DNA of 30,673 bases, from the NCBI GenBank assembly GCA_035291125.1, contig DATDSY010000078.1, positions 1 through 30,673 on the forward strand. The letters are read 5' to 3'. The notes under the pieces are model-generated. The model was given only the letters and a program-made list of their open reading frames with translations, was not told where the DNA came from and did not search any database. A program made the position numbers and the translations under genes. Position 1 is the first letter of the stretch, and each line of letters starts with the position of its first letter. Shown piece by piece: positions 8,823 to 10,994 of the stretch. This DNA is from Candidatus Norongarragalinales archaeon. Lineage in GTDB: Archaea > Micrarchaeota > Micrarchaeia > Norongarragalinales > Norongarragalinaceae.

Positions 8823-10061
8823 ATGACTGCAGGGCAAGAGTGGTTTTCAAACGACAAGGCGGCTGTTTTGATTGCGGCGCTAGTTGCACTGCAAGTTCTT
8901 TCCATCGCATTCTTCCTGGGCTTAACGCGCCCGACTTCAGGCTACGCTACGGGCCAGGTTTTGGGGGTAGTGCAGAACGAACCCCCGTCCAATTATTATT
9001 TTAACGCGGACGCGGCGACTGAAACTTACGGCGGAAAGCCGGCGTTCCGCCTCTCCATCGGCGGCACGATAGTCATGGACGGAAAAGCCAGCGACTTGAA
9101 CGGGTACGGAGAGCTGGTTTCATACTCGACGTGCACCTGGACTGCAACCGCGTTTTCCTCCACCACGGCCGTTTCATTCAACACTTGCAACTCTACGGAC
9201 TGCAATTACACTTGTTCGCTCACGCTATCATCCTCAACACCTTCAGGAACGTACAACGTGACGTCCGACATTTCCGACTCCGTTGCGACGTCGGAATTGT
9301 CGCAGTTGATTCACGTCTTTGAATTCGCAGTGAGCACCGGCGGAGGTTCGGGAAGCAGCGGCAGCGGACACGACATTTTAATACTTCAACCCGCGCCCAG
9401 CCCGAAGCCGTCCCAAATTCCTTCACCCTCGCCGTCCCCTTCAGCCAAGCCAGGGGCAAGCATTGCGCCCACGCAGTACAAGGAGTTCGACGTTTCCATT
9501 GCAGCGCCCGACTTCATCAACAAGTGTGAAGTCAAGGAAGTGGAGGTTATCGTTTCCAACAACAACCCCTCGCGCAAAAGCGTTTCGCTCGACTTCCAAG
9601 GAAGGGTTTCGGAAATGGAACTGCAGCCTTACGAAGTGCGAAGCCTGTTCTACAAAATCAAGGCTCCCAAGGCCGACGGAGAAACGTCCTACGCGCTCAC
9701 CGCAACGCTCTACCACAATGGAAATGCGGTTGCGCAGGAAACCAAGGCCGTGAGGCTGCTGTGGCACGGGCTGGACGTGTGCATCACGCCTACGCCCGCA
9801 AGGGAATTCGTTTTCATCGCAGGCAGGCAGAGCGAGGCGAAGGTGCTTTTGGAAATAGCTACGGATTTGAGCCCGTCCACCCTAGAAGCCGAATTCTCGC
9901 AGCAAAACAACTTGGCGTTCGCAGACTTGATCGACACGGCTGACGGCTACCACAACGCGTCGTTCAGCGTTTTCGAGAAAGGCGAGTACGGCGTGAAAGT
10001 GCGGGTGCGCAAGGGATTCGAAACCCTCCAGCAAAAGTTTGAAAAGGCTCAAATCGGTTGA
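8823..10061 (+). CDS. N-terminally membrane-anchored extracellular protein with beta-rich/Ig-like domains; possible minor filament subunit
   Basis: TM at about aa 14-34 followed by TSGYATGQVLGVVQ. Ser/Thr/Cys-rich domain with NxS/T sequons, G/S and P/S linkers, then Ig-like segments. TTTAAAA lies ~23 nt upstream, consistent with a leaderless start. Confidence 0.7.
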   Translation: MTAGQEWFSNDKAAVLIAALVALQVLSIAFFLGLTRPTSGYATGQVLGVVQNEPPSNYYFNADAATETYGGKPAFRLSIGGTIVMDGKASDLNGYGELVSYSTCTWTATAFSSTTAVSFNTCNSTDCNYTCSLTLSSSTPSGTYNVTSDISDSVATSELSQLIHVFEFAVSTGGGSGSSGSGHDILILQPAPSPKPSQIPSPSPSPSAKPGASIAPTQYKEFDVSIAAPDFINKCEVKEVEVIVSNNNPSRKSVSLDFQGRVSEMELQPYEVRSLFYKIKAPKADGETSYALTATLYHNGNAVAQETKAVRLLWHGLDVCITPTPAREFVFIAGRQSEAKVLLEIATDLSPSTLEAEFSQQNNLAFADLIDTADGYHNASFSVFEKGEYGVKVRVRKGFETLQQKFEKAQIG

Positions 10062-10103
10062 TTAATCAACGGAAACCGCGTGATTAAAAAAAGGTGTCTG
10101 CAT

Positions 10104-10274
10104 TTGGCGCTGATATTCGGGTTTGAAGTCAACCTCCTCGAGCTCATGGTCTTCTTCGAATTCATACTGGTAATCGCGGTCGCCATCCTCGCCCTCGAAC
10201 TAAGGAGCCTGAGGAAAATGATGGACGAGGCATACCAGATAGAGAAAATGCACAGCGAAGAAAAGAAAAAATGA
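10104..10274 (+). CDS. Small single-pass membrane protein (56 aa)
   Basis: AAGGTG RBS at 10091-10096 then TTG at 10104. Hydrophobic helix followed by a charged tail (LRSLRKMMDEAYQIEKMHSEEKKK). Confidence 0.55.
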   Translation: MALIFGFEVNLLELMVFFEFILVIAVAILALELRSLRKMMDEAYQIEKMHSEEKKK

Positions 10275-10409
10275 AGGAGGCTTCCAGAAGGAAGCCCCTA
10301 ACGGCAGCAGAAAAAAAAGCTTAACTGAACTCGGGAAAAGGGTTAAAAGGCAGGCAAAGCAGTATTTTTTCATATTCTGCATAATTTACCGCAACACAGT
10401 GGTTTCAAA

Positions 10410-10994
10410 ATGGCTGAAGTTTCCAACAACACGCTCATAACTATAATCATTCTTGCTTTGGCTATAACGCTCGTTTCCACTTGGACTTTGTTTTCTAAAA
10501 TGGGCATCCAGGTTTCCGGCCTCACGGTAGCGCCGACTGGAACGGTTTCCGCGAGCGTACAATCCACCGCCGACATTTTCCTGCAGGACTCTACAGTTGA
10601 CTTCGGGGCAGTGCAAGTGGGAGTGTCTTACAACGGCGCTTCCAGCGGCAACTACTCCAACGCCAGCCAATTCCTCGTCCGCAACGACGGAAGCGTTAGG
10701 GTGAACGTCACGGTCAGCGCAACCGCACTATGGACGTCCACGTCAGGAAACAACACGAACTACCAATTCAACTCCACCAACACTACAGGCAACACTTCCC
10801 TCGCGGACTCTTGTTCCGTTACTCACAACAGCTGGACCACCATGCCCCTAAGCTCGGCTACGTACGCTCTCTGCCTGCTCAACTTCAGCGACGCAAACGA
10901 CTACGCCAAAGTATCGATTTACATCACAGTCCCGACGGGCGAAGCCGCTGCAGCTAAAACCTCGACGGTAACGTTCACCGCCGCGCAAGGATAA
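10410..10994 (+). CDS. Secreted/anchored single-domain glycoprotein; candidate major pilin or surface subunit
   Basis: N-terminal TM, then VSGLTVAPTGTVSASVQ. Eight NxS/T sequons in the mature part and two Cys. Strongly C-ending codons (every Asn codon I read is AAC), suggesting high expression. Confidence 0.75.
   Translation: MAEVSNNTLITIIILALAITLVSTWTLFSKMGIQVSGLTVAPTGTVSASVQSTADIFLQDSTVDFGAVQVGVSYNGASSGNYSNASQFLVRNDGSVRVNVTVSATALWTSTSGNNTNYQFNSTNTTGNTSLADSCSVTHNSWTTMPLSSATYALCLLNFSDANDYAKVSIYITVPTGEAAAAKTSTVTFTAAQG

Follow-up and report, generated by a model that had tools for sequence, protein, structure and literature searches.

Two neighbouring genes, coding for proteins of 412 and 194 amino acids (aa), were analyzed in a 30,673-nucleotide contig of a Candidatus Norongarragalinales archaeon from the Micrarchaeota (DATDSY010000078.1), referred to here as the window. 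Both proteins begin with the same module, a hydrophobic helix followed by a short conserved strand. The most likely interpretation is that the 194-aa protein is a repeating subunit that forms a surface fibre, or at least a chain, by donor-strand complementation, in which a strand of one subunit fills a groove in the next. On balance, we favour the 194-aa protein as the polymerising subunit of such a fibre and the 412-aa protein as its donor-only base or cap. Three findings from outside these two genes carry most of the weight: giant secreted proteins that end in the subunit's domain, small proteins that have the strand only, and a partner family. Profile searches indicate that the 194-aa family is widespread in ultra-small archaea, and it may serve to attach giant adhesins to the cell. 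To our knowledge, DPANN genomes are full of giant surface proteins without known anchoring, and the mode of host attachment is largely obscure. The finding bears directly on how ultra-small archaea display giant adhesins.

The shared module and its relatives

In both proteins, a short uncharged N-terminus ending in S-N-x is followed by a hydrophobic helix of about 21 residues, 8-11 residues containing S-G, and then T43-G-x-V-x-x-x-V-Q51. The N-termini read MAEVSNN-helix in the 194-aa protein (pre-helix motif VSNN) and MTAGQEWFSND-helix in the 412-aa protein (FSND), and residues 43-51 read TGTVSASVQ and TGQVLGVVQ, respectively. The initial annotation had pointed out this pattern at identical residue numbers in two otherwise unalike sequences. 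The pattern was confirmed and is specific to both genes. Across the six-frame open reading frames (ORFs) of at least 80 aa in the genome bin (898 kb, 78% complete; 797,519 residues), TG.V...VQ had exactly two matches, with 0.34 expected, and these were the 412-aa and 194-aa genes. A looser pattern, a transmembrane helix followed by [TS]G.[VI]...[VI][QNSTE], added only a 72%-identical paralogue of the 194-aa protein on contig C98. Past the short strand the sequences are indeed unalike, since comparison of the two family profiles with hhalign gave a probability of 0.2% and no relationship. The identical numbering is true of these two proteins but is coincidental, because insertions in homologues shift the positions. 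The layout, not the residue number, appears to be what is conserved.

Conservation of the motif among homologues, which the initial annotation had named as a way to refute its idea, is strong in both families. The 194-aa protein has 51 close homologues. In an alignment of 30 of them, G37, P42-T43-G44-T45-V46, A48 and V50 are invariant or nearly so, while the N-terminal helix varies in sequence and stays hydrophobic throughout. A set of 102 diverged small members keeps the same features. Position 44 is G in 88 of these, position 48 is hydrophobic in 89 and position 50 is V, I or L in 97. Within the acceptor domain that follows the strand, F65 is found in 94, E178 in 92, G181 in 98, K183 in 92 and F189 in 87. 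G37 itself, invariant in the 30 close relatives, is kept in 64 of the 102. An exhaustive profile search placed at least 2,449 cluster representatives in the family at E<=1e-3 (1,297 at E<=1e-10). The family has no Pfam or NCBIfam name, its profile had no match at E<=10 among all Protein Data Bank (PDB) sequences, and it is apparently centred on DPANN archaea. Genomes that carry it have 2-8 copies, often in tandem. Nine N-glycosylation sequons were counted in the 194-aa protein; the eight reported earlier are those that lie outside the cytoplasmic N-terminus.

The 194-type domain also ends giant secreted proteins. Their length is 269-3,466 aa among the cluster representatives. In four genomes of the phylum it is 959-1,825 aa; one of the four is the sister genome G056, of the same genus, whose 1,825-aa giant is encoded on G056:C1 with its end near 495508. 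In 44 of 45 large relatives (269-3,466 aa) the domain ends 0-10 residues from the C-terminus. In all 45 inspected it starts at about profile position 33-52, right after the last strand of the preceding FN3-like domain. These proteins have the groove-bearing core and lack a donor strand of their own, which means that the core domain does occur naturally without it. Signal peptides are present in the giants, but no membrane anchor of their own. In the window genome, three partial family copies at contig starts (C25, C126 and C131) look like small paralogues and unlike the sister genome's giant, and the C126 copy (88% identity) may reflect strain heterogeneity in the bin.

The reverse arrangement, a strand without the domain, was found in three relatives (G189, G154 and G197), where ORFs for membrane proteins of 63-75 aa precede the small-subunit genes. 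In each of these strand-only proteins, the S-[NK]-x motif and a helix are joined by a linker to a G-x-V-x-[FY]-x-V-V strand with a short Pro-rich tail. They align in register with the N-terminus of the 412-aa protein, whose residues 43-51 are in register with both their strands and that of the 194-aa protein. Seven homologues make up the 412-aa family, in which G44-Q-V-L and V50-Q-N are invariant. The rest of the 412-aa protein is laid out as a Cys-rich region, a Pro-rich linker and two beta-sandwich domains. When the family profiles were compared with hhalign, no 194-like acceptor domain was found in it. For this reason the 412-aa protein is better read as a donor-only base or cap than as the minor subunit proposed in the initial annotation, whose suggestion of the 194-aa protein as the major, polymerising subunit we retain. 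Structure prediction with AlphaFold2 (AF2) from six sequences gave a mean predicted local distance difference test score (pLDDT) of 54.5 for the 412-aa protein, with an unusable N-terminal half and moderate confidence for residues 220-412. Foldseek on this model returned only generic tandem immunoglobulin (Ig) domains or transglutaminase beta-barrels, and a search of the ESM Atlas with the 412-aa protein gave no useful lead.

The motif before the helix, (I/V/F)-S-N-(N/K/D), is common to three otherwise unrelated sets: the 194 family, in which (I/V)-S-N-(N/K) is family-wide, the 412 family and the strand-only proteins. It lies at 10422-10430 and 8847-8855 in the window and was seen in relatives P0060-P0134, often in an n-region without any basic residue. 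This motif may mark a dedicated export or processing route.

Strong matches to the partner family, A4, were found in 9 of the 301 genomes of the phylum, and these are exactly the 9 with strong 194-family matches. The partner proteins are 414-554 aa long, and in relatives their gene comes after the subunit gene on the same strand. The two genes are adjacent in this way in six of the nine genomes (G143, G197, G154, G189, G149 and G250). In the window genome and its genus they are far apart or on different contigs. The copy in the window genome, C26:449-1906, has a signal sequence and a C-terminal membrane helix. It scored 28.7 bits against PF11797 (WxLIP_HBD), just under the cut-off of 28.9 and over profile positions 86-129 only, and is a candidate membrane-bound chaperone. 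The profile of the partner family had no match among PDB sequences.

A conserved protein of 137-162 aa always follows the partner gene (L040:6603-7016 (+), L041:4063-4551 (-) and G000:C26:2-421 (-)). It has a helix and a small beta domain, with weak DUF4402 and PG_0320-like matches. In G154, the gene for this protein is followed by one for a SpoIIM-family polytopic membrane protein. Also in G154, an exosortase-family gene (L041:7204-8307 (-), 38.9 bits) lies directly upstream of the operon of strand-only, subunit and partner genes. The window genome has an exosortase/archaeosortase-family gene at G000:C92:245-922 (-), which matches PF09721 at 37.6 bits and contains one in-frame TGA.

Structure models and competing readings

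The initial annotation had expected an incomplete fold that is completed by the N-terminal strand of another copy, and the AF2 models agree with this. From an alignment of 30 rows, the monomer of the 194-aa protein was modelled with a helix at residues 6-30 and a nine-strand beta domain, between which residues 32-52 were left unplaced (pLDDT <50). When three copies of residues 38-194 were modelled, residues 40-51 filled the groove of the next copy (56-70, 170-191). The interface score ipSAE was 0.44, 0.45 and 0.47 (median 0.45), and the best of three controls scored 0.00. The mark used for this score was reached by 20 of 30 solved pairs and by 1 of 23 single chains, a calibration that is only rough here because an author-supplied alignment and three copies were used. 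Contacts agreed to at least 91% between runs, and the partner pLDDT was at least 72.

The three-copy model is an open linear chain that runs head-to-tail from copy 1 to 3 to 2. Donor residues 40-51 touch residues 56-70, 74, 88, 104, 107, 170-174 and 178-191 of the next copy, and the pairs with the least predicted error are 42-47 with 189-182 and 44-48 with 58-68. The modelled donor pairs in parallel with the first strand of the acceptor and in antiparallel with the C-terminal one, the canonical topology after donor-strand exchange. G44, V46, A48 and V50 of the modelled strand point into the core, and the first three of these face conserved hydrophobic residues of the acceptor. The predicted groove residues coincide with the most conserved columns of the family (F65, G181, K183 and F189).

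The monomer model was also compared with known folds, as the initial annotation had proposed. The top list of Foldseek against the PDB is dominated by donor-strand filament subunits: TLP-1a (E 1.4e-4), FimA, FimI, the TasA fibre, Pyrodictium cannulae, CFA/I, Csu and AbpA. This includes the TasA and AbpA named in advance, but the TM-scores were just 0.30-0.37. In a wide search with VIA-align, donor-strand subunits were intermixed with glycosidase, integrin and MSP domains. Because the TM-scores are low and generic sandwiches are mixed in, the fold matches are suggestive of a donor-strand subunit at most.

Under the favoured reading, the 194-aa protein would be exported via its N-terminal helix, which would then probably be removed by cleavage behind the conserved [ST]-G. 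The candidate enzyme is the archaeal signal peptidase I encoded at C131:17549-18049, and the residue at -3 of this site is often acceptable to signal peptidase I. Residues 40-51 would settle in the hydrophobic groove of the neighbouring subunit. At one end, the helix-plus-strand module of the 412-aa protein would fill the groove of the last subunit, so that the chain, whatever its length may be, would be capped or anchored at the membrane. The strand-less domain of a giant could sit at the opposite end, as payload or adhesin, and the A4 partner might prime the subunits as a membrane-bound chaperone. More tentatively, and with less confidence than we place in the roles of the two proteins, we propose that DPANN archaea own a chaperone-assisted donor-strand-exchange pilus. 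This pilus would have glycosylated shaft subunits, helix-tethered strand-only anchors, a WxLIP-like priming partner and interchangeable giants (to about 3,400 aa) docked at the tip.

Several observations weigh against this reading. Insertion of the strand is a property of the model, and passing the ipSAE mark can reflect likeness to solved donor-strand pili, not binding. Confidence in the monomer was modest (mean pLDDT 64), and pairing of residues 42-50 in cis through a tight hairpin is conceivable. The Foldseek matches are weak, and in VIA-align, where the best Z was 7.0, generic beta-sandwiches rank equally. The 412-aa family is narrow and its AF2 model poor. At the candidate cleavage site, some 194-aa homologues have P, Y or F in position -3, and the n-region of the helix has little or no positive charge. 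No giant with a C-terminal 194-type domain was recovered in the window genome, which is 78% complete, and the parts are dispersed there, with the partner gene on a separate 2.3-kb contig.

One alternative, which we consider unlikely, is a membrane adaptor without a long pilus. The helices of the 194- and 412-aa proteins would stay uncleaved, and the juxtamembrane strand would clamp the strand-less C-terminal domain of the giants, or one or two subunits, with strand complementation acting as a non-covalent anchoring device. This could explain why the strand begins so soon, only 8-11 residues, past the helix in both proteins, why the SG site sometimes departs from the -3/-1 rule, why the strand-only proteins are just helix, strand and short tail, and why giants with a signal peptide and without a membrane anchor end in an acceptor domain. 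A subunit that holds both donor and acceptor is, however, the signature of a polymer, and the three-copy model is an open chain. The 2-8 copies per genome, often in tandem, also argue for polymerisation, and the moderate codon bias of the 194-aa gene, together with its putative private promoter and terminator, suggests an abundant product. Without cleavage, moreover, a subunit could not leave the plane of the membrane. A lower probability still is given to an ordinary, self-complete Ig-like surface glycoprotein, in which the segment would be the first strand folded in cis, or a sorting or cleavage signal of co-regulated exoproteins, and the trimer a domain-swap artefact. The middling VIA-align Z and the many non-pilus beta-sandwiches would fit such a protein, as would a model whose pass may derive from solved pili. 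A signal of this kind is also consistent with a related motif, [ST]G[FLY], that other exoproteins of the window have next to their C-terminal anchors, and with the exosortase-family gene that adjoins the operon in G154. On the other hand, AF2 leaves the strand unfolded in cis although it is the best-conserved segment, and its inward residues contact the most conserved hydrophobic residues of the acceptor. There are giants with the domain but without the strand, there are proteins with the strand but without the domain, and the pattern is missing from the rest of the genome's secretome.

It is very improbable that the 194-aa protein is a divergent type IV pilin or archaellin, with the helix as filament core, an unusual signal and assembly by one of five PilB/ArlI-type ATPases. 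Three of 30 194-aa homologues match PF01917 (Arch_flagellin) with 26-26.6 bits (E about 1e-5), and the genome has a Peptidase_A24 and five T2SSE ATPases with no detectable PF01917 or PF07790 pilin; neither family has a match anywhere in the genome. These scores are under the 29.5-bit cut-off, the window's own 194-aa protein has no match, and membership in PF01917 was rejected as sub-threshold and confined to three homologues. After a helix of only about 25 residues comes an extended segment of 20 residues. No [KR]-[GAS] cleavage site is present, and in many relatives the protein opens with M-V-S-N-N and the helix comes right behind it. Giants carry the domain at their C-terminus with no helix at all, and no type IV pilin was among the listed Foldseek or VIA-align matches. 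Canonical signals are found on C23, where the genome has its real pilin locus. This complete type IV pilus locus (C23:5727-14977) encodes an ATPase, a platform protein, a Peptidase_A24 and six pilin-like ORFs, one of 103 aa (MEKKGQG/MFEY...). Its leaders read KKGQG/, RKG/ and KRGQ/, and none of these pilins was detected by PF01917 or PF07790. The statement that the two window proteins have no class III signal is borne out by this comparison, since the C23 pilins carry canonical [KR]-G/Q leaders and the 412- and 194-aa proteins do not.

If the favoured reading of a donor-strand fibre is true, one unnamed domain accounts for the mounting of many DPANN giants on the cell, and the parts list is short: a subunit, a strand-only anchor and a partner protein. 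The chaperone-assisted pilus proposed more tentatively above could be the host-attachment organelle that has long been sought in ultra-small archaea. For mutagenesis, peptide competition, and labelling with antibodies or by electron cryotomography in the few existing DPANN co-cultures, the conserved strand and groove are precise targets.

Locus and neighbouring genes

The positions of the features discussed here are listed in Table 1. The spacing of the TATA-like box ahead of the 412-aa gene suggests a leaderless transcript, and the second box suggests that the 194-aa gene has its own promoter; the T6 run past this gene is likely an archaeal terminator. The codon bias of the 194-aa gene, called strong in the initial annotation, is real but moderate. 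Its effective number of codons is 44.8, the 7th percentile of long ORFs and within the range of the window's ribosomal protein genes, and AAC was used 16 of 16 times.

Table 1. Features of the 412-aa/194-aa locus, with positions in the window
Feature	Position	Strand	Remark
KaiC/RecA-type ATPase, single-domain, divergent from the 412-aa gene	8026-8784	-	PF06745 at 5.8e-63
ATTTAAAA, TATA-like box 24-31 nt ahead of the 412-aa start codon	8792-8799	+	Sequence read directly; putative function
412-aa protein ORF	8823-10061	+	Proposed donor-only base/cap subunit
Residues 43-51 of the 412-aa protein (TGQVLGVVQ), donor-type strand	8949-8975	+	Alignment with strand-only proteins
64-aa ORF, small single-pass membrane protein	10080-10274	+	True start possibly 10104 or later
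ATAATTTA, TATA-like box 22-29 nt ahead of the 194-aa start codon	10381-10388	+	Sequence read directly; putative function
194-aa protein ORF	10410-10994	+	Proposed polymerising subunit: N-terminal helix, donor strand, acceptor domain
Residues 8-28 of the 194-aa protein, hydrophobic helix after V-S-N-N	10431-10493	+	Signal peptide or anchor
S36-G37 of the 194-aa protein (V-S-G / L), candidate signal-peptidase site	10515-10520	+	Putative cleavage
Residues 40-51 of the 194-aa protein (VAPTGTVSASVQ), predicted donor strand	10527-10562	+	Models and conservation
Residues 52-194 of the 194-aa protein, beta-sandwich acceptor domain, 8 N-glycosylation sequons, ends ...TVTFTAAQG	10563-10991	+	
T6 run 24 nt past the 194-aa stop codon	11018-11023	+	Sequence read directly; putative function

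Pfam and NCBIfam searches with the 412-, 64- and 194-aa proteins gave nothing significant. The small membrane protein that had been noted between the two genes was confirmed as an ORF. It is kept in position and sequence in four relatives (55-82% identity, 48-65 aa), and it has a charged C-terminal helix and no donor-type strand; any role in the proposed fibre would be conjectural. The KaiC-type ATPase gene adjoins the locus in L013, L014 and L016 and is missing from the loci of more distant relatives. It was rejected as an assembly motor, since only closer relatives have it next to the locus and the G189, G154 and G197 loci are without it, and it is probably not a core part of the system, whatever its function might be. 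In closer relatives, the KaiC-type ATPase gene is separated from that for glutamate dehydrogenase by genes for an RnfD/NqrB-like membrane protein (PF03116, 2.5e-15; L014:4631-5950 (-) and L016:1158-2464 (-)) and a 160-167-aa protein, neither of which is found at the equivalent position in the window or the sister genome.

Large Ig-rich surface proteins are encoded at 11153-13198 (-), 13188-17879 (-) and 25129-26721 (-) of the window, and the 194-type domain is absent from all three (681, 1563 and 530 aa). They end in [ST]-G-[FL]-[FT], a membrane helix and a basic tail (TTTGFFT, SGLSGFF and SGLTGLFT), which looks like a C-terminal sorting signal of the PGF-CTERM/archaeosortase type. Despite having the same length as the window's 1563-aa protein, the giant P0126 is not related to it. 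The window also encodes TFIIB, ribosomal proteins S8e and S3Ae, and a ribonucleotide reductase (76-2853 (+)) that contains an intein with a LAGLIDADG homing-endonuclease domain (PF14890 and PF14528 inside PF02867).

Upstream of the second subunit paralogue on contig C98 (G000:C98:16773-23365 (-), L045), three proteins of 312, 169 and 260 aa combine lipobox-like signals (L-A-G-C) with linkers rich in Pro and Thr. The same stretch has genes for two large proteins (717 and 614 aa) and a 97-aa ORF, which reads AWA-ITGQVGAYVV and then a Pro/Ser-rich tail. The likeness of this 97-aa ORF to the strand-only proteins is by eye; MAFFT places ITGQVGAYVV out of register, and the assignment was left uncertain. 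No Pfam family was found for the C98-type proteins in the orthologous locus L017.

Comparison with known donor-strand systems

The initial annotation had called the system undescribed. This holds for archaea, and full-text literature searches that combined DPANN or Micrarchaeota with donor strand found no such system described in DPANN. A mechanistically equivalent bacterial pilus, the Elr/WxL pilus of Enterococcus faecalis (ElrA-E), was however posted in October 2026 after being solved by electron cryomicroscopy (doi 10.64898/2026.10.17.759780). Applied to one RefSeq proteome per genus at gathering thresholds, the Pfam-based screen in that preprint detected the system in Bacillota alone (doi 10.64898/2026.10.17.759780). 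The parts of Elr/WxL match those proposed for the archaeal system: a subunit with donor and acceptor, tip adhesins that have a variable payload and end in a strand-less copy of the domain, a small base piece that is donor-only and tethered to membrane or wall, and a two-domain partner with a C-terminal membrane helix. The Elr/WxL donor is antiparallel to the acceptor's C-terminal strand, as is the archaeal donor in the three-copy model. Inward residues of the strand alternate between small and beta-branched, as [ST]-x-[GA]-x-[VI]-x-F in Elr/WxL and G-x-[AVT]-x-[VA]-x-[VI] in the archaeal family.

By the Pfam criteria of the preprint, the archaeal system is not a member of WxL/Elr. PF13731 (WxL) had no match in the six-frame genome at E<=10, nor in 30 family members. 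Elr/WxL chaperones are defined there as proteins of 150-800 aa with both PF06030 and PF11797 above threshold, unlike the archaeal partner: PF06030 had no match on C26:449-1906, and its best score in the genome was 13 bits, elsewhere. The acceptor domain at the extreme C-terminus of giants does agree with the Elr/WxL definition, as an architectural feature and not as evidence of homology. A partner gene within 10 kb of a pilin gene, also part of that definition, is found in the six genomes of nine with adjacent genes but not in the window genome or genus. A similarity of 0.79 in ESM features between the 194-aa protein and a WxL cluster is a lead only. The archaeal host has no peptidoglycan, no sortase and no LPxTG motif. 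Its donor-only piece is tethered by an N-terminal helix instead of a C-terminal LPxTG, and its subunit, unlike that of Elr/WxL, is heavily N-glycosylated, judging by the sequons.

By analogy, the closest archaeal counterpart appears to be the threads of Sulfolobus acidocaldarius. These are built from the PibD-independent, Sec-exported and heavily N-glycosylated Saci_0406, whose N-terminal tail is freed by signal cleavage and enters the next subunit (PMC9715654). The product of the neighbouring gene, Saci_0405, has a donor tail and no acceptor site, and was proposed to be a cap or nucleator (PMC9715654). The division into proteins with donor and acceptor, acceptor only, and donor only thus resembles that of both the Elr/WxL pilus and the threads. 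No sequence similarity to threads was seen in the profile search of PDB sequences. The putative mature N-terminus of the 194-aa protein, L-T-V-A-P-T-G, is without the isopeptide Asp/YYY motif (D-x-YYY) of threads, which are crenarchaeal and narrowly distributed and have no known giant tip proteins or partner protein.

Pam pili belong to Ca. Mycosynbacter amalyticus, an ultra-small episymbiont without an outer membrane from the candidate phyla radiation (CPR) of bacteria (PMC13278184). They consist of Ig-like pilins joined by donor strands, with membrane-anchored PapD-like chaperones and a truncated Ig-like C-terminal domain (PMC13278184). Structural neighbours of the 194-aa protein in the ESM Atlas include CPR proteins. 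Unlike the 194-aa system, Pam pilins have two domains with an internal linker strand and a bacterial host.

In TasA-TapA of Bacillus, AbpA of Pyrobaculum and the haloarchaeal Tat-dependent bundling pili, the N-terminal strand is donated after cleavage by an archaeal-type signal peptidase, and the fibre is nucleated or anchored by a strand from an accessory protein. Cannulae share the donor-strand principle with TasA/AbpA and the haloarchaeal pili. Likeness of the 194-aa protein to this group is weak (TasA fibre 8aur, Foldseek E 8.9e-3 and TM-score 0.33; AbpA 7ueg, Z 5.5; Peptidase_M73 Atlas clusters, TM-score 0.47-0.51), and PF12389 had no match in the 194-aa protein or 30 family members. Unlike TasA-type systems, the archaeal locus has no dedicated signal peptidase gene, and TasA-type systems lack giant tip proteins that end in the subunit domain. 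The best Foldseek match, TLP-1a, has a TM-score of just 0.35. TLP-1a/b are environmental fibrils (CryoSeek, PDB 9IKJ/9IKK) in which an Ig-like protomer is completed by the N-terminal strand of another; their source organism is unidentified, their relatives are without annotation, and the authors attribute them to bacteria (PMC11494351). The donor there is protomer n+4 of a tubular helix, unlike in the modelled 194-aa chain. As for chaperone-usher pili, the archaeon has no outer membrane, and the 194-aa fold resembles the FimA/FimH pilin domain weakly (Z 5.2-6.2).

Donor-strand pili in archaea and the four-part logic in bacteria were already known. What is new here is an unnamed and very large domain family that is undetectable by the profiles that define the known systems. 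If the proposed fibre is real, donor-strand logic extends to organisms with a single membrane and no cell wall, and the logic of the WxL pilus of Bacillota and the Pam pilus of CPR reaches the archaea, either by ancient common descent or by convergence.

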